From Azolla caroliniana (Eukaryota > Plantae > Polypodiophyta): DNA of 64,000 nucleotides. Shown piece after piece: positions 8,057-40,324 of the stretch. Each line of letters begins with the position of its first letter. Positions within the stretch are counted from its first letter, which is position 1. A program made the position numbers and the translations under genes. The DNA is taken from positions 620,001 through 684,000 of the forward strand of contig JBHGNT010000005.1 in assembly GCA_043228905.1 (NCBI GenBank), in the 5' to 3' direction. Below the pieces are notes generated by a model that did not search any database, had not been told where the DNA came from, and saw nothing but the letters and a program-made list of their open reading frames with translations.

Positions 8057-8864
8057 TGACGAGAACTCAACGCTCCTTATGTCCAACGCTCGGCCACAAC
8101 CGAGCTTCTTTTCATACGCAGAAAATGGGAAACAAATGCACGACACAAAGGAGAGAAAATACACAGGAGGTTTACGTGGAAAACCCCAAACTAGGGGAAA
8201 AACCACGGTAGCCCACAGGCTGCAAACTGTCGCTATGTAAGAATGTACAAAACAGTGAGTTCACGGAGGCAACGACCTCGTGCTCACGATCTTCGCCACA
8301 GGCGGCGGTTACAACAGAGGCAACGACCTCGTTCTCTCTCTCTCTCTCACTGTACAGTTACGCGCTCTCTCTTCTTCTTGCACCAACAAGAAAAATGACA
8401 ACGACAACTAAAGGTTTGCCCTAAGTCATATTTATACTAATATGACTTTTCGGCTATTTACAAATATAGCCTCGATGGGCTCTCAGAAACATATTTACGA
8501 ATATGTCTCTTCCTCCGGTTCTCACCGGGTCTGCGTCATTCGGCTCTCCATAGCCGGGTGCTCCTCATCCGGTTCTCACCGGGCCTGCACCATCCAGCTC
8601 TCCGTAGCCGGGTACTCCTCATCCGGTTCACACCGGGTCTGCACCATCCGGCTCTCCGTAGCCGGGTACTCCTCATCCGGTCTTCACCGGGTCTGTATCA
8701 TCCGACTCTCCGTAGCCGGGTCCTCCTCATCCGGTCTTCACCGGGTCTGTATCATCCGGCTCTCCATAGCCGGGTCCTCCTCATCCGGTTTCGGCCTCGG
8801 CCTATCCGGAGTTCATCGGCACTGTTCTTCTCCCTTCCCATCCGGAGTGACCTGTCTCCCAACA
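8057..8864 (-). mobile_element. Copia-type solo LTR (808 bp) with 5-bp TSD GCTCA
   Basis: TG..CA termini flanked by GCTCA at 8052-8056 and 8865-8869. Shares the blocks TTTAC.TGGAAA.CCC, GGGAAAA(A)CCACGG, CTATTTACAAATATAG and CCGGTTTCGGCCTCGGCC with the Copia LTR at 61969-62679. Confidence 0.9.
8511..8790. repeat. ~5 copies of a 54-bp tandem repeat inside the solo LTR
   Basis: Unit CTCCTCATCCGGTTCTCACCGGGYCTGYAYCATCCRGCTCTCCRTAGCCGGGTV; it explains the repetitive ORFs 8442-8936 and 8558-8950. Confidence 0.92.
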
Positions 8865-12787: not shown

Positions 12788-13708
12788 TGTTAACTCTTCG
12801 GGCCGGACAATGGCCTAACACAGGGTGTCTACGTGAGACACTTCACCAAAGGGTGTTACGGCAACCGGATTAGACTTCAACGCTTAATCCGACTTAGTTA
12901 AGTTACTTATTAGGATCATCTTTCATAACACGCTGTCGAGGGTTGCTACGCCCTTGCGTGCAGAAAGGAGGAGGGACCACGGGGGTCTTGGACCGAAGAG
13001 CAAGAGAGAGAGAGGAGAAGGAGAGAGAGACCCGATTACACAGAACCGAAGATTGCACAGGGACACGGCCCAACAAACAGAGATCACAAATAAACGCCGA
13101 CGCGGATGGACGCAACCACAAAAGATATGTACTTATGAATGCAAGAAATTAACAGGCTAAAGCGTTACAACCCACGGTGGGGCACGAAATAGATACTAAC
13201 GAAAACGAACAGGGCGGCGAACAGATGCCGACCCCTGTATGTCGCGACGCACGGAAAGGGGAAAACAGGTCGGAGGTGCTGCAGGACGCACTCGGGGCGT
13301 TCCACGGAACAGCGCAAGCCTCCTCGAAACCTGCACAGGTACGCGATGGAGCAGAAAACAGAGAAAGCAGGAGTGAGAGAGAGCTTCCCAAATCGGTTCG
13401 GCAGCACTTCGTCCTCTCCGCGCGAGATCCCCCACTTCTATTCTTCCTCTTCCTTTTATATCCCGTCAAGAGGCCGTTTGGCATTAACTGCATGCCAACC
13501 CAATCTACCCACCTAGGATCCTCGTATGTACCTACTTCGTCCTTAGGTACTTCTTGGCGCGCGTGTGCGTGTAGAGCCGTTTCCCCCCCACGCCTTGTTC
13601 CTCCGATTCCCCTTGTGGGCGGTTTTCTTCACGACATCCGCCCCCACCTAACCGCGCATCCACCGGCATGCGCCAATTTAAGTTGGCACGGAGAAAACCG
13701 GCCCGCCC

Positions 13709-16700
13709 TTACTCTTCGCCTGCCGGCCCTTCCTCGGCCTCGGATCGGTCGTCGCTGCTGTCCAGGAGAATCGGGTCGGGTTCGTCGTCGTGCCGCTTCT
13801 TGAAAGCTTTGATCCTCTTCCCGGCCACGGGTATCGCTATTCTCGTACCGTCGAGTTCCGCCAGATGATACGTCCCGTTGTCGTTGGCGCTCTGTACCGT
13901 GTACGGCCCGAACCATCTCCGTGCGAACTTCCGCGTTGCTCGGTGCTGGTTGTCGAGGCTGCTGTCGTAGACGAGCACCCAGTCACCCTGTTCGATCTTC
14001 TTCGGTCGGAGTCGGTGCGTTCGGTCGAACCTGGCCTTGTTCTTTATCCTCGCCACTCGGATCCTTTCTGCAGCCGCCTCCACGTCCTCCGGTCTCCGTT
14101 CGAGTTGTCGTATACGCGCTGCCAACAAGTCCTCCCGGCTCATCTCGTCCCTCCAGTCGACCGTTGCCCATGAGGAGATTGTTCGTTCCATCGGCATGAT
14201 CGGCTTCTGGCCGAACATGAGCTCTGTCGGCATGTACCCGGTTACCGAACTGTGCGTAGTCCGGTCGGCCCACAAAGCATAAGGTAGAAGTCGCGGCCAG
14301 TTACCGATCTGGCCCCCGCATGCCCGAACCAGCGCTTTAACGATCGGTCCGTGTCCGCGCTCCACCTTTCCATTCGCCTCCGGGTTGTACGCAGTGGTGA
14401 GCGAGAGTTTGACTCCCAGCCGATCAAACAGCTCCGCGGCTTCCTCGGTGTCCAACTCCCCTCGGTCAGCCACGATCTTCCCGACGCACCCGTACCGGCA
14501 TATCACGTCTTCGATCAGGAACCGACACACGGCCGCGGTCGTCTTATTCTGAAGGGCTCGGCCTTCCACCTGGTTCGTCAGGTCTTCCCGCGCTAGGACC
14601 AGATACCGCATCTGTCCTACCCCCATCGGCATCGTCACTAGATCTACCATCCATTTGAAGTGGATAGTCGGAGGGTACGTAGGGCGAAGCCCGTCCCGGT
14701 GTCGGACTATCGAGTGCATCTGACAACTCTCGCAAGTTGACACGAACCGATGCACGTCCCGGTACAATCCCGGCCACCAGTACTTCCCCTTCAGTTTCTC
14801 AAATGTCGCCCACGTTCCACGGTGTCCAGCCCAAGGGCTGTCGTGGTAGGCCGCCAGTAGCTCCTCCTGTTCTTCCTTCATCGCCACCACCCGGAGCGGG
14901 ACGCCGTTCCTCTTCTTCGGGTGCTTCCACAAATGCCCATCTCGGAGAAAGAATCGATATGCTTTCTTCCGGATCCGGTTGGCCTCGTCCTTCGTCCACG
15001 ACGCATCGGGCGTCATTGTCTTCAAAAACCCGCCGATCTGCAGCCACTCCCCGTCGTACTTGCTCGCGTCGAACTCGTTAAGCGCCGGAGTGCTCATCCC
15101 GTCGGTCGTCATGTATGCTGCCTCGAAGAAATCCACGCCGACTTCTTCGTCTTCCGAAACCATGCCGCCCTCGTCGTCGAACCTCGCTCTTGAAAGCATG
15201 TCGGCCATGGCGTTGTCTTTCCCGGAAATGTGTCGTATTTCCGGGTCCAGGGACTTGATGTACGCTATCCACCTGAGCATCGCCAGGTCCGGAGTCGCGC
15301 ATCCGGAAACCATACCGAGAATCGGCAGGCAATCCGTCTCGATGATCACTTCTGTCCCTATCAGGTAGTCTTTGTCGGCCTTAACCGCCGAAACAATACC
15401 CCAGAGTTCGCGTTTAACCTGGGCGTATCCTCGCTGCCGTTCACTGAGGACTTTCGCGCCGAATCGGATCGGGAACCGATTGCCGTCCTCGTCTTCCTGG
15501 TTCACGACCCATCCGATCCCGGTCGGACTGGTATCCACCGTTATGAATACCGGGGTACCCTTCCCGTATACCGCCTTCCGAAGTGCCGGTGCCGCTGCAA
15601 GAGCCTCTTTCAGCTTCCGGACCGATTCCGCGTGCTCGTCTAGCCATTCGAACCTTCGCCCCTTTTTCAGCAACCCGTACAGTGGCTCCGCGACGTGTGC
15701 GTAATGCGGGATCCATATGTGGTAGAACGCGCATGCCCCCAGGAATCTCCGTACTTCCGTGACCGAGCTGCAGTCGGGCTTCATCGCGGAGATGGCTTCT
15801 ATCTTTGCCGGAGACGGTTTCCGGCCATATGGTCCACATAAATGTCCGACCACCATGATTTCCGACTGCCCGAATGCTGACTTCTCCCCCGAGAAGGTGA
15901 GCCTCGCATCCTCTAGCCTTTGTAGCACCTTCTCGCAGTCGTCGATGTGCGTTACCACGAATCGCCGGCATCCGTCCGGGCCGATCGTCTCGTCCTTTTC
16001 TTCCACCGGGCATCCCTTGATCGGGATGTCGTCCAGAAACGGCATGGTGATGTCCGGGATACAGTCCCTCAGAACCTTGTTCATCGCATTCACCATGTGG
16101 GCCACCGAGTTGGTCCCTCCTTGCGGCAGTGTACACATCCGAACTAGGCCGAGGGGAGTTCGCATCGTCGTAACGTCTCTGCTCTCCACGGCTAGCTGGA
16201 ACTGGTCGTACCCTGAGTATAGATCCCCGACCGAGTAAATTGACCTTCCGGCGAAGGCCTCCGCGAACTCGTCTATGGTCGGTCCGATCCCTGCGTTCCG
16301 AATCGTCACTCGATTGACCGGCTGCAGGTCCTGGATGAAGCGCAACGAACCGTTTTTCTTCGGTACGGTAAACCATCGATTCGAATATGGGGCGCTCGAC
16401 GGCTCGAGAATTCCCATATCAACTTTCTGCCTCAGCAGCTCCATCAACTTCGGGATGTGAGCTCTCGGAACCGGGATTGGCTTGAGATTCCATGGTACAT
16501 GCGGTACCGTGAATATCACCATCGGCTCCACGATCGTCGGGTCAACGCACCCGATTTCCTCCGGCGAGAATGCGAAGGCTTTCCCGTGCCTTCCGAGCAT
16601 TCTCCGAAACCGGTCTTCCTCCGCCGGCAGTAGGAACCCGCCCCCACCGATTTTGAGCTCTCGGAGCGTCTCGTCGGTGAAGGTGTGTCCTATGCAGGCC

Positions 16701-17206
16701 GGATCTCGTAGACTAGGGTCCGATGCAACCCCTTTGATTCTCGACGCGCTGTCCTCCGGTAAGGGTGCCGCGACTGGCCTTACCTTCCGGTCCACAGTCT
16801 TGTACTTGGTGCTCACGTGGGCCGTCCGAACTGACTCGAGCCCTCGACCGAAGTCCGCGATGACTTCGTGCATCTCCTCGGAACACACCGGTATCGTCCG
16901 GTCTTCGTTAAGGCCTTCTTCGACTACCTTTCCCAGCATTCCCAAGGTGTCGTCGAATGAGACCGCCTCCACGGCCCCGTTGATTTCCTCGTCAGGGCCG
17001 AGAACTCCGCACGCTCGAAGTCTCCCCTCCGCCTTTCTCTTCTCTCGGCCGCCGATGCCGACTGTCGTGCACGCTCCGCTGTCGGAGAACAAAAATTCCC
17101 TACCTATGGTACAAGGTTTCTTCGGTTTTATCGTACAGGTGTGGGGTTTTCCCGGGGTGTCCGGACTGTCGCGGCCCCACGCCTTGGCAGTCCTCTCTAA
17201 AAATCC
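13709..17206 (-). CDS. pol: Pol (RT - RNase H - integrase) of the young Gypsy; the frame is open upstream as far as the slippery site
   Basis: RT motifs QDLQPVN, DLYSGYDQ and FLDD; RH motif VDTSPTGIG; integrase HHCC (HDSPWAGH..CESC), D-D-E core (VDLV, ADRG, KVERGH) and GPY module. No stop between 17206 and 13709 in this frame. Confidence 0.95.
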   Translation of the reverse strand, partial: GFLERTAKAWGRDSPDTPGKPHTCTIKPKKPCTIGREFLFSDSGACTTVGIGGREKRKAEGRLRACGVLGPDEEINGAVEAVSFDDTLGMLGKVVEEGLNEDRTIPVCSEEMHEVIADFGRGLESVRTAHVSTKYKTVDRKVRPVAAPLPEDSASRIKGVASDPSLRDPACIGHTFTDETLRELKIGGGGFLLPAEEDRFRRMLGRHGKAFAFSPEEIGCVDPTIVEPMVIFTVPHVPWNLKPIPVPRAHIPKLMELLRQKVDMGILEPSSAPYSNRWFTVPKKNGSLRFIQDLQPVNRVTIRNAGIGPTIDEFAEAFAGRSIYSVGDLYSGYDQFQLAVESRDVTTMRTPLGLVRMCTLPQGGTNSVAHMVNAMNKVLRDCIPDITMPFLDDIPIKGCPVEEKDETIGPDGCRRFVVTHIDDCEKVLQRLEDARLTFSGEKSAFGQSEIMVVGHLCGPYGRKPSPAKIEAISAMKPDCSSVTEVRRFLGACAFYHIWIPHYAHVAEPLYGLLKKGRRFEWLDEHAESVRKLKEALAAAPALRKAVYGKGTPVFITVDTSPTGIGWVVNQEDEDGNRFPIRFGAKVLSERQRGYAQVKRELWGIVSAVKADKDYLIGTEVIIETDCLPILGMVSGCATPDLAMLRWIAYIKSLDPEIRHISGKDNAMADMLSRARFDDEGGMVSEDEEVGVDFFEAAYMTTDGMSTPALNEFDASKYDGEWLQIGGFLKTMTPDASWTKDEANRIRKKAYRFFLRDGHLWKHPKKRNGVPLRVVAMKEEQEELLAAYHDSPWAGHRGTWATFEKLKGKYWWPGLYRDVHRFVSTCESCQMHSIVRHRDGLRPTYPPTIHFKWMVDLVTMPMGVGQMRYLVLAREDLTNQVEGRALQNKTTAAVCRFLIEDVICRYGCVGKIVADRGELDTEEAAELFDRLGVKLSLTTAYNPEANGKVERGHGPIVKALVRACGGQIGNWPRLLPYALWADRTTHSSVTGYMPTELMFGQKPIMPMERTISSWATVDWRDEMSREDLLAARIRQLERRPEDVEAAAERIRVARIKNKARFDRTHRLRPKKIEQGDWVLVYDSSLDNQHRATRKFARRWFGPYTVQSANDNGTYHLAELDGTRIAIPVAGKRIKAFKKRHDDEPDPILLDSSDDRSEAEEGPAGEE

Positions 17207-17934
17207 TCTCGGTTTTCGGAACCGAGGGAATCACGGTTACGTTCGTGGTTCGGCCTTACCGTCAGAAACTGGACCGAATGGAGCCCGTCTTGGCTTTTGA
17301 CCCTCGCGTAGGCCGAACCATTGTCCAGCACTTTGGTCTCCATCCGCGCCGCCGTAATGTACGGTTCTCCCAGAATGACCGGGTGCGAAGACGTCTCCTG
17401 CACGAAGAAGTGTTGGTCAATCTCGACGTCGCCAATCTTGACCCGCACATTCGGACAGGCCCCGTGCAGTTCCTCGGTGGCGCGCGTTGCTGCCCTTATT
17501 TTCCACCCGTGCTTGGTGTTGATCGGCCATTTGCCCTTCTTATAGAAGTCCATGGACATCAAATTGATCTCCGATCCGTGGTCCACCAAAGCTATCACCG
17601 GTTCCTGGACATCGCCGATCTTCACCGGGGTTTCCGTGGTCGCTCGGGCCCAGTGTGGTCTCGAATAGTGGCTTTCCGCCCACCCGTCTCCCAGCGCCAT
17701 GTCGTCTAGGTGCGTCGTTCGCACTTCCACCGATCTTTCCGGTTCTGTCTCCGTCGACAGCCTCTTCCGTTTCACCAAGTCCACGATGGAGTCGTGGAAC
17801 TCCTTCTTGGCGATTCCCAGCACCTCTCGTAACGACAGCTCCACCTTGCTGTCGAGGATCCGTTCCTCCAGGACCTTTCGTAAGTCCGTGGTCCTTTCTA
17901 TCTCCGTCCCCAGACGGTACCCGCCCTTCTGGGT
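17197..17934 (-). CDS. Aspartic protease-containing ORF of the young Gypsy, in a different frame from both gag and pol
   Basis: Active-site motif ALVDHGSEINLM and VILGEP flap/end motif. The frame opens after a TAA near 17935 and ends ...ENREDF*. Confidence 0.85.
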   Translation of the reverse strand, partial: TQKGGYRLGTEIERTTDLRKVLEERILDSKVELSLREVLGIAKKEFHDSIVDLVKRKRLSTETEPERSVEVRTTHLDDMALGDGWAESHYSRPHWARATTETPVKIGDVQEPVIALVDHGSEINLMSMDFYKKGKWPINTKHGWKIRAATRATEELHGACPNVRVKIGDVEIDQHFFVQETSSHPVILGEPYITAARMETKVLDNGSAYARVKSQDGLHSVQFLTVRPNHERNRDSLGSENREDF

Positions 17935-19322
17935 TTATCTTGCGTACCGGCCCCGCCGGCTTCGTCCCGTCGTGGCCCGGACCGGGTCTCGTATCGTTGT
18001 GAGGGCCCGGTCGTCCCGGGTCTCCCCACCCGCTTCTCTTCTACCAGAGCCTCGTAGTTCTGGCAAGCAGCTTCCACGAAGCCCGTCCTTTCCTCGACCG
18101 GGTCGCTCCACCCGGTCATCTCCCGTACCCGTTTCTCCGCACGGTCCGATTCCTCCCTCTTCATCCTCGTCTCGGCAAGGCCTTCCAGCACCGTTGGCCA
18201 GAATCCGGCTTTGCTTTCCCTCCGGGCCTCGCCGCCCCCAACTCGAATGCCGGCCGACGCCGAGTAGTGGACGGTTTCCGCGTGTCGGGCCGCCGCCTCT
18301 TCCATCACCCTTTTCATACCGCCTTTTCCGTCGTTTCGGCTCAGGGCCCTTCGGGTGTCGCTGGCATGCACCCGTCCTTCCCACAGGTACACCACCCTGT
18401 TCCTCAGCGCCTCCGCGAAGTCGCCGCAGTCCTTCCGAATGTGGCCGACTTCATCGCACCACATGCACCTGTTTCCTGCCGCCGGCCGTCGGTCACGAGC
18501 CGGTTCGCCTCCTTCCCTTCGGGCCTGCGCGATTTGGAGGTCCTTTATCGCCTTCGTCAATTCCTCCAGCGCCGCTCCTCCGGTTGAGCCTCTGACTACG
18601 CCGGTCGAAGCCGAACCGGTTTCCAACCACTCCCGGGTCTCTTCCTTGCGCACCTGTGGCGCTGGTTCGAGCTTCCTTCCTGCGACCGAGCCCGACCCGG
18701 TCGCCCCGTTATCCGCCCATTCTCGCCGTTTGTCGAAACGGCCACAGACCTTCCTGACAGCCGCCCAGTCGGTAGTGAGCCCGTCTTCGGTTTCCAGCAA
18801 GAAGCCCACTTGCTCCCGATCCCGCTCGTCGACCGACTTGACAAACAGCAAGACCCGGCTCGTGTCCAGGATGGTTCGGTCAAGCGCCGAAAGGCGCGCA
18901 AAGTTTTCCTCGAACTCCCGGAGGAGCGCCGACGCGTTTCTTCCCTTCCCCGGGGACTCCACCCATTCCATGAACCTTCGCTTCGAAAGCCGGAGCGCGT
19001 CGTCCAGCCCGTATTTCTCTAGGAGCCGACCTTCGAACTCCTCCCAGGTACGGCTCTCCGTCCGCACCTCGAGCACCTCCGCATGGATGCTCGGCATCGC
19101 CACTCGGGGAAATCCGGCAAGACGCCTTTCTTCCGGAATGTCCCGCATCAGCATCTCTGCACCGTAGGACGCCAAATACTTCGTGGCATCCTTCCCATCG
19201 AACCGGCCGATCGTGCCGACGACCGCCTCAATAGCTCTGTCGAGGGCGCCGGTGCTCTCGCGCGCGTTTACAATCCGATCCACGGCCGAAGCCATGGCCT
19301 CTGCGAGATCCGACCCCCTCAT
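17898..19322 (-). CDS. gag: Gag of the young Gypsy
   Basis: First ATG after the PBS (MRGSDLAEAM); GRFDGKDATKYL capsid-like start; CCHC knuckle CMWCDEVGHIRKDC. Confidence 0.88.
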   Translation of the reverse strand: MRGSDLAEAMASAVDRIVNARESTGALDRAIEAVVGTIGRFDGKDATKYLASYGAEMLMRDIPEERRLAGFPRVAMPSIHAEVLEVRTESRTWEEFEGRLLEKYGLDDALRLSKRRFMEWVESPGKGRNASALLREFEENFARLSALDRTILDTSRVLLFVKSVDERDREQVGFLLETEDGLTTDWAAVRKVCGRFDKRREWADNGATGSGSVAGRKLEPAPQVRKEETREWLETGSASTGVVRGSTGGAALEELTKAIKDLQIAQARREGGEPARDRRPAAGNRCMWCDEVGHIRKDCGDFAEALRNRVVYLWEGRVHASDTRRALSRNDGKGGMKRVMEEAAARHAETVHYSASAGIRVGGGEARRESKAGFWPTVLEGLAETRMKREESDRAEKRVREMTGWSDPVEERTGFVEAACQNYEALVEEKRVGRPGTTGPSQRYETRSGPRRDEAGGAGTQDKPRRAGTVWGRR

Positions 19323-19344
19323 TTCCTGCTCTTCTGCCGCCTCC

Positions 19345-19362
19345 TTCACGTCGGGTTCACCA
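19345..19362 (-). other. Primer binding site complementary to tRNA-Trp
   Basis: The minus strand reads TGGTGAACCCGACGTGAA, 4 nt from the LTR. This is complementary to ...TTCACGTCGGGTTCA-CCA, the plant cytosolic tRNA-Trp 3' end as I recall it. Confidence 0.85.
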
Positions 19363-20415
19363 AAGATGTCGAGGGTTGCTACGCCCTTGCGTGCAGAAAG
19401 GAGGAGGGACCACGGGGGTCTTGGACCGAAGAGCAAGAGAGAGAGAGGAGAAGGAGAGAGAGACCCGATTACACAGAACCGAAGATTGCACAGGGACACG
19501 GCCCAACAAACAGAGATCACAAATAAACGCCGACGCGGATGGACGCAACCACAAAAGATATGTACTTATGAATGCAAGAAATTAACAGGCTAAAGCGTTA
19601 CAACCCACGGTGGGGCACGAAATAGATACTAACGAAAACGAACAGGGCGGCGAACAGATGCCGACCCCTGTATGTCGCGACGCACGGAAAGGGGAAAACA
19701 GGTCGGAGGTGCTGCAGGACGCACTCGGGGCGTTCCACGGAACAGCGCAAGCCTCCTCGAAACCTGCACAGGTACGCGATGGAGCAGAAAACAGAGAAAG
19801 CAGGAGTGAGAGAGAGCTTCCCAAATCGGTTCGGCAGCACTTCGTCCTCTCCGCGCGAGATCCCCCACTTCTATTCTTCCTCTTCCTTTTATATCCCGTC
19901 AAGAGGCCGTTTGGCATTAACTGCATGCCAACCCAATCTACCCACCTAGGATCCTCGTATGTACCTACTTCGTCCTTAGGTACTTCTTGGCGCGCGTGTG
20001 CGTGTAGAGCCGTTTCCCCCCCACGCCTTGTTCCTCCGATTCCCCTTGTGGGCGGTTTTCTTCACGACAACGCGTAAGATATAACAATTAAGACAGAACG
20101 GCAATTAACACAGAGAGATAACAACGCTTAAGCTTTCATTAATTAACCGCTAACTATTACATTGTATCCGGGCCTTTAAATAGGTTTCCGGTCTGTATTA
20201 CAAAACGGTGCCATCCGCACCTGTTCGGGATCGGTCCAGATCCGGAACGGCATACCGATTCCGGTCCGTCCGTCCACACTCATAGCTTAATTACAACCAC
20301 ATTCCTACTACTTAATTAGCTCTCCGTTTCCCACTCTGGACTCCTTTGCCGGCCGGTAACACATGGCACGCCTGTGGGACAGTACCTTGTACGTCGAATC
20401 CACAACCGACCCTTG

Positions 20416-23314
20416 CTATTCTTCGTCCAAAATGTCCAGAATGCTTTGTTCGAGAGGCTCCAATGGTTCATTTGGAAGTGGTTGTTGTTGTTGTTGTTGT
20501 TGCTACTCTGTTGCTGTCTGTTGCGGCGGGTCCGTTGGTGGTTGTTGCGGCTGCTCCTCCGTTTGTGGCTCTGACCCCAGCGTCTCCGTCGTTGCTCCCT
20601 GCGTCGTAGTGGTCTCCGGTTGACTGGTTCCCGGCTGGCCCTCAGCCGGCGACGATTCCTCATCACTAAGGTTAACCGTTGTCGCTTCCTGTGCTTTTTC
20701 TTCCCGTACCCGGGACCGCTCGTAGCTTTCAAACTGGATTTGAGCGTCCAGCCTATCATCGTCCAACTGAGCTACGAGTTGCCTGACCTGCGCCAGCTGT
20801 TCATCTGCCAGGACTTGGAAGTCGTCGGCCAGCTCGTCCCGTATGGCGGTGAAGTCCTCGGAAGTCAACGTATAACAGTCATCTCCTTCCTTCCGCCGGT
20901 TTGCCACATCCGCCCGTAGCAACTGGAGTTCCGTCGCGTTTTGTGCCCACTTTGTCCACCATTTTACGGAGCTTTCATCAATCAAGTGTTTCGTCTGATT
21001 CAGCCATGCCCGGAGGATGGACTGAATCCGGCTCGTTCCCAATTGCGATTTGGTTTCCGCCGCTTGCCGTTCCTCCTTCAGTTGTTTGATGATTTTGACG
21101 TTGTCCTCCGCCTGCGCCTTGTAATGCGTCAATTGCCTTTGATATGTACTTTGTAATTTCTGCAATACTGTTGACGCTCTCTCTTTGTCTTCCTGCTGCT
21201 GCCTCTGGAGCTCTATTCGGACCTTCTCCGCCTCTTCCAAGCGTCTTGTATTTTCCGCCCGTTCGTCGGCGATCGCCGTCGCGGCCCGATCAACTACCTG
21301 CTGGAGCTCGGCCATCCGTTCTTTATGCTCCGTTTCCAGCCATTTGTAGTCCCGGTGTAGGTGCTCAAAATCATCTGTCTTTTGCTTGAGCCGTGCGTTG
21401 ATCTGACGACGGGCCCGGTCCTCGCGGTCCTTCTGCTGGCGGAGCTCTTCCTTTAGCCGTTCAATCTCTGTTTCCGCCGTTTTCCGCAGCTTGTCCTTTT
21501 CCTGCAACACTTTGTCTTTCTCCTCCTTTAGCCGGTCGTACGCTTGATGGCCTTTCCGAAGGCTCTCCTCTACCCGGCGGAGGTTCTCAGCAGTCTTCTT
21601 TAATTCGGCTTCGGCTGCCGTCTTCAATTCTCGTTCACGGCTCCTTAACGCTTCTTGTGCGGCAAGTTCCTCTCTCAATTCCGCAAGCTCCCAAGCTTGC
21701 GCCGCATCTCTCGCCGGAACGGTTTCCGTTGCCGGGGTCTTATTGCTATGTACAGGTCGTTCCGTTTCTTTATTCTGTACACTTACCGGAGTCACTGGTG
21801 ATTGGATCCGTATTTTGGCCATCTCTGTCGTGACCTGATCCAAATCTTTTTCAAGGCACCGGATTCTGGACCCGGCCGTCTCTAGTTGTTCGGTTGTGAC
21901 GAGCAACCGTTCGCTTTGCGCTCTTTCTTCCGCCTCTATATACCCCACTGCTCCGGCTATCTGTTCGCCTATCCACCGGAGCCACAGGCTACCGGTGCCT
22001 TGTTGTGCTTGCACAGAGGTTTGATAGATGAGCTCACTTCTAGAGGGGTGGTCCCGCCTGGTTGCGCCGAGTTGTAGTTCCTTTTCTGTCCGTGGACCAT
22101 CCTGTTATCCTGGTTCCCCTTGCGCTTCTTCTTGGCTGACCGAGGGAGGCTGCAGTGACCGAGGGAGTCTCAGTCTGGGGAGCCGGTGTTCCCTCTGTCT
22201 GAGGGTCCGAACGTTTCCCGGTTGTCTCAACGGTCCTTGCCGACGACCGTCGCTGGAGGTGCTCCGTAGGCTCCTCCTCTATTTCCTCCTCCTGAGCTCC
22301 GGCATTGAGTTTTGCTGCCAAGGGGTCCACTTCTCGATTCACCGGTCGGTGGAGTGTGACCTTTACGGGCCGTGCCGGTGGTTCCTCCTGCGCCTCCGTT
22401 GGGTGCTTCCGGCTTCCGCTTCCTGCTGCCGCCTGTTCTGCATCCACCGCCTTTCCCTTACTGGCCTTAGAGGCCAACATCTGTTGCCGTTTGGAAGCCG
22501 TCCTTGGGGTGCCGTCCAGCACTCTTCCTCGCTTCTTGGGCTGGACGGTCTGAACGGGTTGCACCAGCAAGGTGAGCCACTGCGTTACGGCGTGCCATAT
22601 CCTTCGTCCGTCTCGGCCTTCTTTGCCGTCTTTGCCTCTAACGATCTTGATCGCCGCACACAACCCGTCTGCAATCAATACCGGCCAATCCACCTTGATT
22701 CCTTCATAGGTGGCGATGATCATCCCTGCCCGGTTTTGCGGCATGACAGGGGTTCTAGGGTACACGTGGCCGTATTCATGGAGCACACGAGCAATTTCGC
22801 GGAAAAGCATATCCCCGCCGCCCTGTGTCCGGTAGCCCTTGCTGGCTAGAGAGTACTCACCAAAATACCTGATGAGTTGCTCCGGGGTTGGATTGTCGAT
22901 CGTGAGTATGCCTCCCTCCGGAAGGCCTGTTAACGCTCGAATCGCCTCTACCGTTATGACCTCTGTATCGATTTCCTTGATCACTTTGTCGGCTTCTTTG
23001 TGTGGCAGTACTTCCATCATCATCAAGAAGCCCTCGAGCCCGTGTTGCTTCAACCATGTCTTGGCGGCTTCCGACAGCGTTTGCGGGTCCATCTCTATGT
23101 CGGGGTCGGATTGCGGTGGCGAGGATGGATGGTGATGAGAGTGGGGTTGAGAAAGAGAGAGTTCAGAAGGCGGGGGTTCTCTGTACGCAGGTTCTCGTCT
23201 AATGATCTTGCAGCGTTTCGGTGCTTCTGTGCTCCTGGGTTCGCGAAAGTAGAGGGTCTCTACGCACAATGGTTTTTGTCTGTGCATTCTGGCGCCTTTT
23301 TCGAGTTTGTGCAT
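20416..23314 (-). CDS. Extra ORF(s) in the env-like position of the Athila-like element; now two ORFs (22040-23314 and 20503-22014) with frameshift/stop damage
   Basis: The N-terminal part has the pattern ITVEAIRALTGLPEGG...YEGIKVDWPVLI seen in plant retroelement accessory ORFs. The C-terminal part is a long E/K/R/Q-rich coiled-coil-like stretch with a Q/P-rich tail. Confidence 0.7.
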
Positions 23315-23465
23315 GTCGCGTACTTAAAATAGCATTATGTCCTGTGGTGGCGCTTTAAATGCCCACTACATACCTTTTCGCTCCACGCTCTTTCCTCCAT
23401 TCATTCCTCGCTTTTGCATGATTGTTTTTTTTTTTTTTTCAGTTATTTTTATTGTTAGTGTGACG

Positions 23466-26400
23466 TCACATGTCCGTTGGTCCTCCCGGACCCTTACCGG
23501 CCTCATTCTCTCCGGTTCCCAGCTTGCCGTCTCTGCCGTCTTGGTGGTTGCCGTCGGTCCTTTGCTCAAACGGGTTCTTAGGCATCGGTCCTCTATATGC
23601 CTTTAACCGGAATCCGTTGACCCATTTGCCCAGCACTTCGCCGGCAAGTGTCCCCAACTGGTAGGACCCATTATACTCCCGTGTTAGCCAATATGGTCCG
23701 GTCCATCTAAACCTTAGTTTACCCGGCATCTTGCCCATCCGGGTTTGGAATACTAACACTGGTTTGCCGATTGCGAACATTTTTTCGTTACCTTTCCTGT
23801 GCCGGTCGACGAATGCTTTCCGTCGCCGTTGCTCCAATTCTAAATGTAGGATGATGGCCAACCGTTGTTCCTCCAGCTCACACAACGCTGTCAACCTTAT
23901 TGTCTCCGACTCCTTCTCATTCAGCCATTCTCGTAGCTGGATCCGTAAGCTAGGTACTTGAAATTCTACCGGCATGACCGCCTCGAGTCCGAACGCCAAC
24001 CGGAACGGTGTTGTTCGGATGCTCGTTTTGTATGCCGTCCGGTATGCCCAAAGCACGCTATGTAGCTTTGTGTCCCAATCCGTCCGGTTCTCGTTGACGA
24101 TCTTCCGAAGGATGTTCTGGAGCGTCTTGTTTGTTGATTCCGCTAATCCGTTCGCCTGTGGATAGTAAGGTGTGCTTCGTTTGTGGACCACGGCATAGAA
24201 GGTCATTAGGCTTTCCACTACTTGTCCGAGAAAGTGCCCCCCTTTGTCACTTATCAATTCAATGGGGCATCTGTAACGGCACCAGATGTACTCATGTAGA
24301 AACTTTGCCGTTGACGCAGCGGTGTTATCCCGTAAAGCTTTGGCCTCCACCCATTTCGTGCAGTAATCCGTAGCAACGATAACGTACCGATTACCCGTTC
24401 TCATTGCCGGTGGCTTGAACGGCCCTACAAAGTCCAGCCCCCACTTTTGGAATGGCTCGAGTGGTAGTACCGGCTGGTGTGGCATACGAGCCTGCTCCGT
24501 TGGCTGGCCCATTCTCTGGCATAGGTCACATTCTTTTGCGTACCGTACCGCATCTCTTAATGTCGTTGGCCACCATAGGCCACTTTGCCATATTTTTCTG
24601 GCTGTCGCATCTCCGGCATAGTGACCTCCAACAACTCCGCAGTGGGCTTCCCTCAGTATCAGTTCCTTTTCATCGTTGCGCACCGCCCGTCTCCATATGC
24701 CGTCAGCGCCCTTGTGGTACAGTGTGTCTCGCAGTAAGCAGAAATGTCGGCTTTGTACCGCCAGGCGTTTCCGTTCGTCCCGGTTCAGCTCTTCCAGAGG
24801 CAGTCCTGTGCTCAGAAACTGGTGCATATTTGTGAGCCACTTGTCTTCCTGGGCCACTGTCTCATCTGCTGTTGTCTCCGTAGTGACTCGAAACAGCTCC
24901 GCATCCGGAAACTCATCCGGTACTCCGTCACCCGTCTCTCCGGACTCCAATCGGCTTAAGTAATTCGCTACGGCATGTTGTATACCGGGTCGGTGGAATA
25001 TTTCAAACTCGAACTCCTGTAACAATAAGGTCCACCGGGCCAATTTGCCGGTGAGTGACGCCTTGGACACCAGGTAAAGGAGTGCCGAATGATCTACATG
25101 GAAGGAAAACTTCCTTCCCAATAAATAGTGCCGAAACTTTGTCACACTTTAGATCATTCCTAGAGCTTCCCGTTCCGTAGTAGAGTAGTTCCGTTCTGCT
25201 TGGGATAGCTTCCGGCTGGCATAGTACACTGGCTGGTACCACTTTGGTTCCGTAAGCTGCATCAGTACGCTTCCGATTGCGATGTCGGAGGCGTCCACGA
25301 ACACGTGAAATTCTTTACTCCAATCTGGAGGTTGTACTACCGGTGCCTGCGACAATAGTACCTTGAGGGCCTTATACGCCCTATCCTCAGTATCGGTCCA
25401 CTGGAATGGTGTCCGATGTACGACGGCATGCAACGGTGTAGCCAGGTCGGCCAAGTATCGGAGCATCCGGCTGTGCCACCGGATCTGGCCTAAGAACCGG
25501 CTTAATGCCTTTGCCGTTGCCGGCGCCGGTGCTTCTAATATGGCTTTCACTTTGTCCGGGTCGACTGCAATACCTTCCTGGCTCACGATATGTCCTAATA
25601 AAGTTCCACTGGACACGCCAAATACACACTTTCCCGGATTCAAGCTTAGCCGGTACGCTCTACACTTTTCCAGACAAAGACGGAGGTGCTGAAAATGTTC
25701 CTCCTCCCGACTATAGACGGCGAAATCGTCAAGGAAAACCTGCATAAAAGCCGGTATATATTCACCAAAGATTTCCATGATGATTCGTTGAAACGTGGCC
25801 GGTGCCGTTTTGAGTCCGAACATCATCACCACGGCCACAAACACCCCCCATTCGGTGACGAATGTCGTTTTCTCTTGGTCGTCGGGGTGCATCCGGATCT
25901 GATTATACCCGCTGAATCCGTCTAGGAAGCTATAGACCTCGTGGCCGGCGACGACATCCAACACTCCATCTGTGAACGGAAGTGGAAACGCATCCGTTAC
26001 CGTAGCCGCATTGAGTTTCCGGTAGTCCACGCAAACTCGAATTTTTCCGTTCTTCTTCGGTACGACTACGATCAGGCTCAGCCATGTCGCTTTCTTTACC
26101 GGACGGATAAAGCCAACTCTTAGCAGTTTGTCGATTTCTTCCTTGACCTTGGCAGCATAATTGGGATTCATCCGGTACCGTCTTTGTGCCACTGGTTTTG
26201 CGTCCTTCCTCAAGTGCACTTGATGTTGGTATAACTGAGGGTCGAGTCCTCGCATGTCTTCGTATGACCAGGCGAATACGTCGCGAAATTCCGTGAGAAG
26301 TGTTATCATCGCCGTTTTGTCTCCGGACTTCATCTCCTTGGCAATGTGCACCGGTTTTGCTTCGTCCGTGGTGCCTAAATTCACCTCTTCCAGTTGCGAT

Positions 26401-29240
26401 GCTTTTACACGCTGTGAAACGGCCATTTCCCGTTCCAACGCTTCCTGCGCTTGCCGTAACTCCCGGATTGCGTCTTTATCCGGTTCTGCTTCCGCCTCTT
26501 CCGGTTGCGGTAAGTACGGTGCTACGGCTTCGGCAATGTCAATTTCGAAGAGGGGTATGATCTTCGGGTTTTCCTGCAGGTATTGAGCTTCTTCTTCGTC
26601 CGCTAACCCTTCGAGCATGTTGACGCATTCCGCATACAACGGTGGACATTCCTTGCCAGTGCTCGTCCTTGGCTGTGTTGGTACCTGTACCTTGGCTTTT
26701 CCTCGCCGGAAGGTAATTATATTTTTTCGCCAATTCTGTTTGATATGTGCCGTTTTCAACCATGGCCGCCCCAGCAATAGCGGGTATGCGCCTTGTGCCT
26801 GTAATTGTAGCACTACGGCTGAGATGTGAAATGTATGCCCGCCGACGGTGACTTCTAATTTCCGTATTAATCCTGTTGGCCGCACTGAGCTTGTATCGGC
26901 CATCCGCAACCAGAACAGACACGGCTCCCACTCGTGGATTCCTAGGTCATCACACGTCCAGAGGCTTATTACATTTACCCCAGAGCCTCCGTCTATAACT
27001 GTGCCGGGGTGTTCTTTCCCTTTTACAATGGCAGTGATTACCGAACTGCTGGTGTCGACCACTGTTGGTCCCTCCTCCGGATTTGAGAAGAGTATCGGTG
27101 CCGGTGATGGTTCTCCTGTCGTCATGGCCATCTTCAATCCTTCCGTGAATCTAGGCACGAGTTGTAGGAGTCTTCCTAGTGGTAACGTAATCTGACATTC
27201 TTGCAACGCCTGCCATGTCTCGTTCTCGGAGTGACTACCGCCGGCAAGCCCTGCGGTGTTCTCCTTTTGCTGCTGTAAGTCTGTGACATTCTGCTCGTTT
27301 GCTTTCTTTACCCATTCCGTTGCTTGTTTGCGAATGGTCTCCTGTGTCTCCCATTCTTTGGCCATGCCCTTCGACCTTGTGGTCACTTGCTGCAGGTCTA
27401 CCACCTTAGGGACTACCATATTTACCGCCGATCGTTTTTCATAGCTCTTCACCAGGCATTGGTTACTATAATGGCCTTCCTGTCGGCAGTAGTAGCAGTA
27501 GGCTTTCCGGGCATTGCTAGATTCGGCCTTGTTTGTTGTACCCGGGGCAAGTCCTACGGTACGCACGGGGTTCTGTACCGGTTGGTTACTTGGAGCGCCT
27601 TGTTCCAGATCCCGGGGGTAGCCGCCTTTTTTAAAATGCCGTTTTTTGTTAAAGCTCTTCTTATTACGGTACTCTTGACGGGGTTGCCCGTTATATCTGC
27701 CGTATTCCTCCCGTTGCTGACGATACCCGGGGGAGTGCTCCCTGTCGTCCTGTTCGTATCGTCTATTGTAATCCTGGTACCGATCATGCCGGTCATAGTT
27801 ATCTCGCCGATCACCGTACCGGACATCATTTTCCCGTCGCTCACCATACCGGACATCCTGTGCCGGTCGGTCACGGTCCATTCGCCGCCAGCGTTCGTCT
27901 TCTTCATCCCGGCTGCTGCGTGGCTCAATTTGTCGGACGAGCGGTGCTTGCCGAGTCAACAGATTATACTCGCACCTATCCGTCGTATGGCTCTTGGATT
28001 GACAGATTACACATTGCGTCCTCATTGTGCATTCTAGAGCCGAGTGTCCGGAATTCAAGCAGGTTGTGTACTGTATTACTTGTCGAAACCGGAGGTCTTC
28101 ATCGGACGGTAACGCCCGTTGAAGTGCGCCCAGTGTGAGCCAGGAGCTTGTCTTTTCCATCTCTTTCACCCGGTCAATGACCTGGTCGATGGTACTTGTG
28201 CGGAAATCGGTTACCGTGCAAACCGTGCGTAGGGGTTCCCGGAGCGCGTTTAGGAATATCGTCCGTAATTCCTCCTCCGGGGGTGCACGGGCAAGCTAAC
28301 TATGCATCCGTTGAAACCGAATGACAAATTGGGGAATGCTCTCCCCTGCCTCTTGCCGGATGGTATAAAATAAGCCTACCATTACGGTCTGGTCCACCTC
28401 CTTTTGAAAAAAATGCATGAATTTAGCTTTTAAATCTGCAAAGGTGTTGATGGTAGACGGGTCCTGCGTCCGGCGCCATCTTGCTGCCGGTCCCTCCAAT
28501 GTGACGCCAAACTCTGCTATCTTAGAGCGTTCTTCTTCCTCCGGTGTCAGTCGCTGGGACACATGGTTGGCTTCCCATGTCTGTTCAAAGGCGTGCACAT
28601 GAGCTTCCGCGTCCGGATCATCTCTATACTTGGAGTACTGGAACAACATGTCGTCGTCCGGTATCGGTGCGCGGGCTGGTAGTGTTGGTGCTCGTTCCGG
28701 AATTTTCTCCGGTGTCGGTGGTCTTTCCCGATCTGATTCCGGTGTCGGTTGTTTCTCTTCCTTTGGTGACGGAGGCCTCTCCTCTTCGACTTCCGGTGTC
28801 GGAGGTCGTTCTTTTTCTGCTGGTTCCGGGGGTTCCAGCGTTAGCACTTCCGGTTCCGGTTCCAGTGTCGGTAAGGTATCCGATCCTTCGTCCTCCGGTC
28901 CGCCCGGGGTTTCGTTACTGCTACGGTAGTTCGTGTGCACGTTGTATTCCCCTTCGGAGTCCGATTCATATGCTGAAAAGGCCTCTGCTTCGCCTTCTCC
29001 GTTTGCCAACACGTGGAGAAGGGATTCGGTTTCCCAGAGGCTGCTTAGGCTGCTACCATCGTCCGGGTGCGATGTTTGCTGTAACCAGAGGGAGTCCTCC
29101 GCTACTCTCCGGATTACGTTGGAAAACGAGCGATCCGCTCTAATTTCCTGCGCCGCTTGCTGGAAAGCCTCGTGTCTCCTTTGCCTTTCGGCAAGGCGTC
29201 GAGTTCGATCTGTAACCAGGTCGTGCGTTGATTTAGACAT
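23466..29240 (-). pseudogene. Single-frame gag-pol of the Athila-like element, disrupted by two nonsense codons (near 28296 and 25149)
   Basis: ORFs 28296-29327, 25149-28169 and 23466-25145 are all in one frame. Three CCHC-like knuckles, protease VIDGGSG, RT LDGFSGYNQI and VFLDD, RH FVDAS, integrase GLDFVGPF, SDKG and NGLAES. Confidence 0.92.
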
Positions 29241-29275
29241 CCATCCGTGCCATCGTTCGCTGCAAAAACAGGAAT

Positions 29276-29286
29276 CGTGGTCGCCA
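29276..29286 (-). other. Primer binding site, probably tRNA-Arg
   Basis: The minus strand reads TGGCGACCACG, 7 nt from the 5' LTR; this matches the ...GTGGTCG-CCA end of plant tRNA-Arg(UCG) as recalled. Confidence 0.65.
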
Positions 29287-29739
29287 AAAACTGTGTTAAC
29301 TCTTCGGGCCGAACAATGGCCTAACACAGGGTGTCTACGTGAGACACTTCACCAAAGGGTGTTACGGCAACCGGATTAGACTTCAACGCTTAATCCGACT
29401 TAGTTAAGTTACTTATTAGGATCGTCTTTCATAACACGCGTAAGATATAACAATTAAGGCAGAACGGCAATTAACACAGAGAGATAACAACGCTTAAGCT
29501 TTCATTAATTAACCGCTAACTATTACATTGTATCTGGGCCTTTAAATAAGTTTCCGGTCTGTATTACAAAACGGTGCCATCCGCACCTGTTCGGGATCGG
29601 TCCGGATCCGAAACGGCATACCGATTCCGGTCCGTCCATCCACATTCATAGCTTAATTACAACCACATTCCTACTACTTAATTAGCTCTCCGTTTCCCAC
29701 TATGGACTCCTTTGCCGGCCGGTAACACAAAGTTGTTGA

Positions 29740-37224: not shown

Positions 37225-40164
37225 CTATTGTGTTGGGGGGAATCGAGCTCGGGATCCCTCATTTAGCATCGGCCATTGCATCGCCCACGTATTTGTCCCC
37301 TCAAGCTTCTTGTTATACCTTGGGGGGGCAACATCCGACAAACTAGATTTCCCGTTGTGAATATTCCAAATGTTGCACCGGCCCTCCAAAGCCTCCCCTA
37401 CCCCCACATGATAAATATTTGTGGATGACACTCCTCCTGGAGAGTCTACTAGGACCCGAGAATCCCTTCCATGGGGCTCCGTTTCACACCCAAACATCTG
37501 GGAACCATCGGCTCCAGCTCCAAAGGCTTGCATCACATCGTCCATCGGTGCAGGCAAGTTCAAATCTAAGCCTGCCCCTCGCTCGTTCTCGCCGTTAATG
37601 CATTGCCTTGCATGCTCAATCGTATAACCCGACACCTTATAATTGAACTGCGCAGTGGTACCACCCGACACTACCTTGCCTGATGTGGGGGGGGACGAGG
37701 ATGGCATGCTCATCGTGTCCACACTTTTGTCAACGCCCGTCCAATGGCAGCGCTTGTGTCCGCCCAAAGCCTGGCCCGTCGAGAACACGCGGTGGCATAT
37801 CGTGCATTCATGGCCCTTGCCAGGGCTCAGGTGAATGGCCCTCTTGTCCTTCTCAGCATGATTGAGCAAGGGAGACAATGGTGCAGTGTACTGCATGCTC
37901 ATTTCCTGGGACAAGTTACATGGCCTCTGCATGATCAAAGGATCCTGTGCAGAAGGGCTTGGTCTTTGCATCACTTCAGGTGACAAACCTAGCTTATTAT
38001 TGTCACTTAGCTTATTATGTGTCATTGTCGGGGCCGGATCTTGTGCTGGGGCCAACCATAGCTCGGGAGCCTCCTCCCCCGAGGTGCTGGCCTCGGAATC
38101 AGCCACACTAGTTGTCTTCGCAAAGCATCCTTTCATCCTTCTATGGCTTGCTCGATGCCCGCCCAAAGCTTGGTGCGAGGGGAACGACTTGTTACATGTA
38201 GCGCATTCGTACCTGGCCATATTATTAGCCTCTAGGCCGGCCATTTTATCTTTGGCATCTTCATCATGGTGTTGTTCTTTCAAGAATTCATCTCCTTCTT
38301 CATCTTCATCATCATCATCTTCTTCGGTAGTGGCCCGAAGATCGTCATTCACGATATCTTCATTGGGGCAGGCAAACTCTTCGCCTTCTTCTTCTTGGAC
38401 CCGTTTAGCCGCTTCCGCAAGTAGAAGGAGAGAGTTTATAAGGGGGGCATCCTTTATGTTGTGACCTTCCTTCCTACCTACTAATCCTCTATCTTCTTCC
38501 TGCCCCGTTTCAACAGATGTTGTCTCCGAGGCATCTTGTTCTTGTACTCCGGCTTCTTCTTCTTCTTCTTCTTCGTCCTGTGAATCGCTGCTAATTCGAA
38601 GGTTCAATCCTGCTTCCTTTGATCCTACTCTTCGTGGCCTCGATCGTTTTCCTCTCGGCCAATGAGTGGCCCCCAAATCATCATCATGATCTCTTTCTCT
38701 AGCACCAGGATCATCAAGAATATTCTTTGAGGATTGAATACCACTATATCTGTTAAGTACCTTCTTCTTCTTGCTGCTGGCCTTGTTGATCATCAATCTG
38801 CCTTCCAGTGAGCTAGATACATTATTATTAGTCCTCGTAGTTTGCTCAGGATTAACAATAGGGGGAAGAATTCCTCTCCATTCTCGTTCTGGATGGCACC
38901 TCATGTGTCCAAACAGAGCTTTCCATGACCAGAAGCCCTTTCCGCACTCGGAGCATTTCACACTTTTCCGATCATCTTTGGGCGCCAATGAATTGCCCAG
39001 GCCCTTGGCATCCATGATAATATTGCTAATGTTATGACCAGCCGAATTATTCGCACAGATTTTGTTACCATTAATCGCAGGATTTTCTCCAGTAGGGAAG
39101 GATTCATGATCATCCAATTCATGTGAGAATCTCTTGCTTCTTTTTGGGTTAGACCGGAGTTTATAGTTATTATTGTGTTGTAGCATAAGGCCATTATCGA
39201 GGTCTTGGTTCGTCTTACTTTCGCAGATACCCCCAGCCAAATACAAATCTTCTGCACCCTGATCTTCTACCTCGGAATTGTCGGTACCCAACATTAAGGC
39301 TTGGATATTAATGTTGTTATCCATCTCCAACTCCGATTCTGATCCGGATCCTGATACAGATTCTTCTTCTTCAAGTTCCTCTTCTTCTTCTTCTTCTTCT
39401 TCTTCTTCCTCCTCCTCTAATTTGTGTCCTTGGAAGCGGCCATTCATCGGTGAATCTTGGAGGTATTGGAAATAGTTATTCTCCCAGTTACTTGCAACTT
39501 TGTCTACCGGCCAATATCTCACTGCTGCCTGCAGAGGAGGCATCTTGTAATCGTTGTAAACTTGGCTCGCATAATGACGAGAATGATGAGTACTGCTAGA
39601 ATTACTATAATTATATTTGATGTTCTTCAGATTGGTCTCTCTTGGGCTAATCTTAGCACTATCATCATGACTGATCTTCTGGGGCCTGTCAATCATGTGA
39701 CTAGCATGGATCTGATCAGGATTACTGTTTGTCGGTACATAGCTATGATTGGAGGTATTGTTGTTATACTTGCTACTGTTGAATAGCTCCCCATGAACCC
39801 GCATATGTCCACCCAACGCTCTTCCGGAAGAGAACTGCCGACCACAGATTCGGCAAACCCTCTTGGGGTTATGTTTATTGCTAGTATTATGATTATGGCT
39901 GTGATGGTGATTACTGTGATTATGATTAGTAATCATGGATACGTGCTTGTTGGTTTCGCCATGATTACTTAGCGAAGAATTGATGGAAGGTGAACGGTCG
40001 ACATGATTGACGGCATATTGAAACGGAGCAGTAGAGGATTTAACCAGCTCTTGGAGGAGCTTCCTCTTCTTCTTAGGGTTAGGGTTAGGGTTAGGGCTAG
40101 GGCTAGGGTTGGGGTTGAAGCTAGGTTTGAGAAACAGGGGGATGCAGCCAGGGGGGTCCATCAT
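37225..40164 (-). CDS. Plant C2H2 (QALGGH-type) zinc-finger repressor with four dispersed fingers and an EAR motif, DAZ1/ZAT-like, 979 aa, single exon
   Basis: Fingers CRICGRQFSSGRALGGHMRVH, CSECGKGFWSWKALFGHMRCHPEREWRG, CATCNKSFPSHQALGGHRASH and CTICHRVFSTGQALGGHKRCH; basic NLS PKKKRK; L-rich box SLLLLA; EAR motif LDLNL. Confidence 0.95.
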   Translation of the reverse strand: MMDPPGCIPLFLKPSFNPNPSPSPNPNPNPKKKRKLLQELVKSSTAPFQYAVNHVDRSPSINSSLSNHGETNKHVSMITNHNHSNHHHSHNHNTSNKHNPKRVCRICGRQFSSGRALGGHMRVHGELFNSSKYNNNTSNHSYVPTNSNPDQIHASHMIDRPQKISHDDSAKISPRETNLKNIKYNYSNSSSTHHSRHYASQVYNDYKMPPLQAAVRYWPVDKVASNWENNYFQYLQDSPMNGRFQGHKLEEEEEEEEEEEEEELEEEESVSGSGSESELEMDNNINIQALMLGTDNSEVEDQGAEDLYLAGGICESKTNQDLDNGLMLQHNNNYKLRSNPKRSKRFSHELDDHESFPTGENPAINGNKICANNSAGHNISNIIMDAKGLGNSLAPKDDRKSVKCSECGKGFWSWKALFGHMRCHPEREWRGILPPIVNPEQTTRTNNNVSSSLEGRLMINKASSKKKKVLNRYSGIQSSKNILDDPGARERDHDDDLGATHWPRGKRSRPRRVGSKEAGLNLRISSDSQDEEEEEEEAGVQEQDASETTSVETGQEEDRGLVGRKEGHNIKDAPLINSLLLLAEAAKRVQEEEGEEFACPNEDIVNDDLRATTEEDDDDEDEEGDEFLKEQHHDEDAKDKMAGLEANNMARYECATCNKSFPSHQALGGHRASHRRMKGCFAKTTSVADSEASTSGEEAPELWLAPAQDPAPTMTHNKLSDNNKLGLSPEVMQRPSPSAQDPLIMQRPCNLSQEMSMQYTAPLSPLLNHAEKDKRAIHLSPGKGHECTICHRVFSTGQALGGHKRCHWTGVDKSVDTMSMPSSSPPTSGKVVSGGTTAQFNYKVSGYTIEHARQCINGENERGAGLDLNLPAPMDDVMQAFGAGADGSQMFGCETEPHGRDSRVLVDSPGGVSSTNIYHVGVGEALEGRCNIWNIHNGKSSLSDVAPPRYNKKLEGTNTWAMQWPMLNEGSRARFPPTQ

Positions 40165-40324
40165 GAGCTAGGTGGAGTGGGAGCTTTGGTTATAAGTGGG
40201 ATATGGGAAGCTGGGAGGAGCCTGCGGGGCAGCCAGATGATGGATTAGGGTTTGGGGGGAGGGGGTGCTTCTGGAGATGATTAGGGTTTTAAATATGGTA
40301 CTGAATGGATTTTGATGAAGAAGC

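Follow-up and report, generated by a model that had tools for sequence, protein, structure and literature searches.

Skipper of Dictyostelium and marY1 of Tricholoma have protease in a different frame from pol, and the heptamers of the MMTV pro-pol junction and of the dianthoviruses (GGAUUUU/GGAUUUA) act as -1 shift sites. A -1 shift between pro and pol is established for the beta- and deltaretroviruses MMTV and HTLV (PMC5009743, PMC8310308). In pea enation mosaic virus, an umbravirus, G_GAU_UUU with a nearby stop codon has been tested experimentally as a -1 site (PMC4737148), and stimulatory structures are expected 5 to 9 nt downstream of such sites (PMC5009743). Among plant LTR retrotransposons, the lineage table in PMC6317226 has no entry with frames overlapping at the protease/RT junction, while Tcn1 and Selgy overlap at gag/protease. 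The same survey defines Phygy, a non-chromovirus Ty3/gypsy lineage of Physcomitrella (Neumann et al. 2019), whose ORF organization is listed as 'ND' (PMC6317226, Additional file 5). Here, we analyze a candidate -1 frameshift cassette between protease and RT in a Phygy-type element.

The element is a young Ty3/gypsy LTR retrotransposon of 7136 bp (12934 to 20069) in the window, the whole 64,000-nucleotide stretch of DNA that was analyzed, and all its features given below lie on the minus strand. Its LTRs, target site duplication, primer-binding site and domain order (PR-RT-RH-IN) are those of Ty3/gypsy elements. The two 703-bp LTRs (5' LTR, TG...CA, 19367 to 20069; 3' LTR, 12934 to 13636) are identical, with 0 mismatches, and are flanked by a GCGT duplication of the NCGN type (20070 to 20073 on the 5' side and 12930 to 12933 on the 3' side). 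The primer-binding site (19345 to 19362) is complementary to the 3' end of tRNA-Trp, and ARAGORN called tRNA-Trp(cca) in 3/3 matching loci; by sequence, a polypurine-tract-like stretch (13637 to 13653) precedes the 3' LTR. ORF1 opens with a gag part (17898 to 19322, first ATG at 19322), which lacks a Pfam match and is assigned by position. It closes with a DUF4100 tail and an aspartic protease part (17197 to 17934), recognized by PF13352 at an E value of 7.5e-06, below the cut-off of that family, and by Atlas neighbors of the Asp_protease_2 and gag-asp_proteas types. A -1-frame linker of about 130 codons (16808 to 17200) leads from the shift site to RT; across the lineage, this protein segment is conserved at 120 to 150 residues and belongs to no Pfam family. 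RT, RNase H and integrase (H2C2, rve and a weak SH3-like tail) follow at 13709 to 16807 and are recognized by Pfam.

Named homologues include proteins of Physcomitrium, Riccia and Adiantum, with those of Physcomitrium among the best. On this evidence, the host, with a genome of 523 Mb, is probably a moss. Like Phygy, the element has a 4-bp NCGN duplication (GCGT), a tRNA-Trp primer site, no chromodomain or extra ORF detected by Pfam, and an interior filled by the coding region (PMC6317226). Unlike Phygy, it is short, 7136 bp against a published 7656 to 9968 bp that is a descriptive range drawn from one species, and the Phygy entry, in the part of the survey available, holds no description of an ORF split or shift signal (PMC6317226). 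By its duplication, primer site and compact build the element would be Phygy-type, rather than a proven member of Phygy.

The element family primes on tRNA-Trp, and clusters of tRNA-Trp-like 3' ends are present in the same genome at C8:17796786-17823371 (about 1.2 kb apart) and C16:4989495-5105657. The insertion itself sits in an LTR of another gypsy element (12788 to 12933 plus 20070 to 29729; repeats D6 and D7). In-frame stops break the gag-pol of that other element, in which two additional ORFs (22040 to 23323 and 20503 to 22104) lack Pfam matches. Elsewhere in the window are a single-exon ORF of 980 codons (37225 to 40167), which we take to encode QALGGH-type C2H2 zinc fingers and a C-terminal LDLNL motif, a fragment of a Copia-type integrase ORF (59754 to 61283), and tandem arrays with units of 13 bp (63452 to 63661) and 54 bp (8507 to 8790).

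The cassette begins with the slippery heptamer G_GAU_UUU (GGATTTT, 17206-17200), identified by sequence and by its conservation in copies and relatives. A 6-nt spacer, TAGAGA (17194 to 17199), starts with the ORF1 stop codon UAG (TAG, 17199-17197). In stem 1 (5' arm 17186 to 17193, 3' arm 17163 to 17170), the core GGACTG (17193-17188) pairs with CAGTCC (17168-17163), followed in this copy by a mismatch and one more pair. Within its loop lies the 5' arm of stem 2, GTGGGG (17180-17175), which can pair with CCCCAC (17146-17141) across a 16-nt loop (17147 to 17162) that separates the 3' arms of the two stems and in which a small competing hairpin is possible. The arms were placed by alignment and a per-sequence test. 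The sequence bears out the heptamer, spacer and stems of the preliminary description at these positions; its 6-bp stem 1 is there in the window copy, but in the family this stem is longer, at 8 to 13 bp. Likewise, the protease ORF (17934-17197) ends GAG GAT TTT TAG, with the C terminus ENREDF*, and the pol ORF (17230-13709), in which Pfam recognizes RT, RNase H and integrase, has 1173 codons, lies in the -1 frame and opens 33 nt upstream of the protease stop. The accompanying claim that the intervening segment has no ATG holds for the 86 codons after the heptamer and fails beyond them, because in-frame ATGs at 16939 and 16873, 87 and 109 codons past the heptamer, precede the RT start at 16807.

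The arrangement is rare by chance: in 30 base shuffles of the element, 0/312 relaxed heptamers were followed by two 6-bp Watson-Crick stems in the cassette geometry. In the real window there were 3/578, namely the cassette and two overlapping matches at one AT-rich place (46841-46842). In a pseudoknot-free fold of the window copy, z is -0.64 and stem 1 is absent. Stem 2 of this copy does not surpass what shuffling its C-rich downstream sequence gives (fraction 0.40). A search of 16900 to 17400 against Rfam gave no meaningful match to a curated frameshift element. The window copy alone is weak evidence for the signal; the strength comes from the relatives.

The frame layout is stable within the genome. 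The 20-nt site has 1373 exact matches there, against which stand 3 copies with a U-run one base longer, which places the ORFs in one frame, and 4 with a run one base shorter; a shared frame for protease and RT is therefore the exception. The sequence GGATTTTTAG was kept in 30/30 of the best copies. Among 60 fetched loci, which include some places taken twice, 54 have the exact cassette and 6 do not, and the linker is open in 53 of the 54. In the window copy, a frame break near 17933 separates gag from protease. It is private to this copy, whose LTRs are identical, and reflects either a recent lesion or an error of assembly. A common frame for gag and protease in 29/29 other copies defines the family layout as gag-protease followed by RT-RNase H-integrase. 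The three ORFs of the window copy had hinted at a second, MMTV-like shift between gag and protease; this was rejected because the 29 other copies and RNA reads have the two in one frame. The preliminary description was right to take the 0-frame product as a protease-containing protein, which for the family is more precisely a Gag-protease fusion.

The same layout extends to relatives. A metagenome scan yielded 176, of which 80 loci, 53 to 97% identical and mostly from one series of metagenome assemblies, were kept. Four of these have only a partial protease and 76 have the ORF1 stop; a further 15 lack a scorable RT, leaving 61. Among these, down to 60% protease identity, RT lies in the -1 frame in 57, in the +1 frame in 4 and in the protease frame in 0. 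In every one of 31 non-redundant -1 loci, no stop interrupts the -1 frame between heptamer and RT, with 0 stops in 3951 codons compared to 333 and 221 stops in the other two frames of the same linkers. The heptamers of the relatives are all of slippery types (GGATTTT 61, GGATTTC 5, GGGTTTT 2, GGTTTTT 2, GGTTTTC 1). A single GGAAAAC match, in a broken locus, was discarded as spurious.

At the protein level, 118 of 120 homologues, including those of Physcomitrium, Riccia and Adiantum, reach the protease end. They stop at DF, GF or NF (76), five residues later (19), at VF plus one residue (2) or otherwise (3), and 18 run on. The run-on proteins are for the most part public gene models known from protein only, in which predicted and real introns are not separable; two of them, Riccia models of 1700 and 1920 aa, have protease and RT fused. 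A second subtype (L111, L126, L128, L132 and L139) has its ORF1 stop five codons past the heptamer, inside stem 1, and Physcomitrium and Adiantum proteins end in that way.

To evaluate the pseudoknot, we aligned 34 sequences, comprising the window copy and 33 of 43 clusters; the 10 omitted were broken, short, near-duplicate or without a scorable RT, and some of them have decayed stems. The alignment is nearly gap-free over stem 1, the eight core pairs of which hold in 265/272 cells with changes on both sides (for example, pair 15-43: GC 29, UA 3, AU 1, UG 1; pair 18-40: UA 24, CG 8, UG 2). The stem-1 region folds with a mean z of -3.5, below -2 in 31/34 sequences. For both stems jointly, pairing reaches 77%, compared to 33 to 45% in slid controls, and the covariation score was reached by 0/500 shuffles, a control that kinship of the sequences can beat without structure. 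The structure model was drawn from the same sequences on which it was tested, and both stems lie within the pol-frame coding sequence.

Stem 2 was tested per sequence because it changes register in the alignment; the MAFFT alignment loses this register, with column 30-66 paired in just 10/34. The 5' arms pair better with their own partners than with swapped ones (-11.5 versus -9.6 kcal/mol; 0/20000 permutations). Individually, stem 2 beats shuffles in 21/34 sequences and fails in 13/34, the window copy included. Compensatory changes are evident in GCGAGA/UCUCGC (L129), GCAGGGA/UCCUUGC (L120) and AUGAGGGU/ACCCUCAU (L105). Conservation of the heptamer and of compensatory pairs in both stems, proposed as a check in the preliminary description, is borne out, and covariation of both predicted stems in relatives supports the H-type geometry. 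The lineage combines a slippery heptamer in the 0 frame, an overlap with an open -1 ORF and a predicted stimulatory structure 6 to 7 nt downstream, within the expected 5 to 9 nt, that is supported by covariation.

Together, these features make it very probable that a pseudoknot stimulates a -1 frameshift where protease meets RT. Translation would mostly end at UAG and yield Gag-protease. In a minority of cases, the H-type pseudoknot predicted 6 nt downstream would hold the ribosome, which would slip back one base on G_GAU_UUU with GAU in the P site and UUU in the A site. The shifted ribosomes would read ...ENREDF/LERTAK and continue through the 130-residue linker into RT. The sequences show the frames, their conservation, the open linker and the covariation, while the fold in living cells, the slip with its rate and the protein ratio are inferred; by that ratio, particles would contain about one protease per Gag, with RT and integrase at the shift rate.

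An Ogre-like route, in which an intron removes the ORF1 stop from part of the transcripts and pol is made from spliced RNA, is the best surviving alternative, though a very improbable one. UUUUUAG/A resembles an acceptor in the element family, and in public gene models from Physcomitrium, Adiantum and Riccia protease is linked to downstream sequence, but the joints fall at many different places. The codon right after the heptamer is UAG in 18, UAA in 11 and UGA in 5 of the 34 sequences, so UAG is replaced in 16 of the 34 clusters: the stop is kept and the AG is not, which argues against a splice acceptor. The -1 frame is, moreover, open straight from the heptamer in 31/31 loci, and splicing leaves unexplained a covarying pseudoknot 6 to 7 nt from a slippery heptamer. 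Poly(A) RNA from a related organism, in three runs, gave about 7 to 23 reads per run over the site, 85 to 99% alike and from both strands. At this low depth they contained no splice joint over the junction, such as an intron removing the stop would leave. One pair of stem 1 changes from A-U to G-U in these RNA reads.

We give slightly less credence still to transcriptional slippage on the U-run, or to a structure that serves packaging or dimerization beside a shift that needs no stimulator. The run comprises five U, and low-level indels would escape the read depth of the three RNA runs, in which no indel at the heptamer was seen; however, the run is short and is interrupted by C in several relatives (GGATTTC, GGTTTTC). 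The fixed distance of stem 1 from the heptamer across the alignment argues against a structure unrelated to the shift. Least probable of all is that pol is translated separately, starting at a downstream ATG (16939 or 16873) through reinitiation or on a shorter RNA, with an incidental overlap, since the in-frame Met found about 20 residues before RT in 27/31 linkers is missing in 4/31, the roughly 100 codons before it are stop-free in 31/31 and conserved as protein, and the heptamer and stems would be left without explanation.

A young sister family departs from the -1 layout. Its site, C_AG_GUU_UUU, equals the usual site minus one A and is followed by a 5-nt spacer and the same predicted pseudoknot. 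The cassette is found in two relatives (L105:2834-2917 and L114:2496-2579), which a weakly rooted protease tree of 32 rows joins in one clade with support of 100/98, and in copies in the window's own genome (L141-L152, L156-L169). In both relatives the -1 frame runs into a stop immediately or after no more than 5 codons; it is the +1/-2 frame that is open over pol, where the first peptide, LTRT, is homologous to LERT. Two further loci that score +1, L130 and L140, do so because their linkers are broken downstream, and were rejected as members. The own genome has 86 exact matches to the sister site. An immediate -1 stop is present in 12/12 copies; at further loci, a U variant leaves the -1 frame open for 25 codons in 2/7. 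Six full-length copies have LTRs 99.4 to 100% alike, the same primer site and pol open over 1152 to 1153 codons, and flanks of the duplication type include ACGG, ACGC and GCGT. RNA reads for this family number 5 in all, with 0 over the site.

With a productive ORF in the +1/-2 frame, an A-site codon that can re-pair and a closed -1 frame, the sister family has, in our estimate, an even chance of using a -2 shift. A +1 shift, for which tRNA re-pairing is no worse, is unlikely by comparison, and we consider splicing at UUUUUGACUAG/G or CAG/GU, and equally any other means of producing pol, to be less likely again. On engineered constructs, shorter spacers favor -2 shifting (PMC3458567). We advance only tentatively, with a little under even confidence, a scenario in which a retrotransposon lineage of mosses, liverworts and ferns sets its protease:RT ratio by one pseudoknot-driven shift after protease, and in which one branch went from -1 to -2 through the loss of one base (G_GAU_UUU to AG_GUU_UUU, spacer from 6 to 7 nt to 5 nt). 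If true, this would be a case in a plant genome of natural -2 frameshifting stimulated by RNA structure, and would put the mRNA-tension model to a natural test.

The junction may also be old. A profile search returned 1231 representatives at an E value of 0.001. Among the distant relatives (P0237, P0245 and P0255-P0288), gathered from one distant match, 26/36 end in LK, LN or GK plus one residue. These ends, known as proteins only, lie 59 to 68 residues past the LGxP motif, the same distance as in the lineage, and are compatible with A-rich -1 heptamers. The nearest Atlas clusters of the distant relatives are mostly from Basidiomycota; no relatives were found in viral contigs or in prokaryote genomes. 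As the same end point is found in these distant and probably fungal relatives, a shift at the junction may be older than the split between plants and fungi within the lineage.

Several consequences would follow from a lineage-wide -1 signal at this unusual junction, which offers dozens of natural pseudoknot variants in a genetically tractable plant group. With about one protease per Gag, the question arises how early cleavage is prevented. In addition, gene finders place introns across the junction, and copies that are intact appear 'frameshifted', with effects on bryophyte and fern annotation and on estimates of element activity.

No description of this signal was found in searches of the open-access literature. 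In the available part of a Physcomitrium transposable element paper the term 'frameshift' is absent (PMC7466625), and that of the Retand paper adds nothing on such a signal (PMC11963269).

As in MMTV and HTLV, a -1 shift at the protease end would give access to RT. In those viruses, however, this shift follows an earlier one on which protease itself depends, whereas in the element family gag and protease share one frame and the shift would be the sole one (PMC5009743, PMC8310308). With the umbraviruses and dianthoviruses, the element shares the G_GAU_UUU heptamer, plant ribosomes and a stop at or near the site; the stimulator in those viruses, a hairpin that pairs over a long distance, contrasts with the predicted local H-type pseudoknot of the element (PMC4737148). 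In Ogre and Retand, GAG-PROT is cut from RT-RH-INT at the same point, which predicts the same excess of Gag-protease, but Ogre makes the cut with an intron and Retand mostly with a single stop, whereas the element has overlapping frames (PMC6317226).

For the sister family, the closest counterpart is the PRRSV nsp2 -2/-1 site GG_GUU_UUU: both have G_GUU_UUU, a productive ORF in the -2 frame and a -1 frame that meets a stop directly (PMC4937337). They differ in the preceding base, A in the sister family and G in PRRSV, and in the stimulator, which in PRRSV is a protein acting 11 nt away with no obvious RNA structure in the available account and in the sister family would be a predicted pseudoknot at 5 nt (PMC4937337). 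One base apart and differing in frame (-1 versus +1/-2), the main and sister families would form a matched natural pair for the spacer-length rule derived from engineered constructs (PMC3458567).
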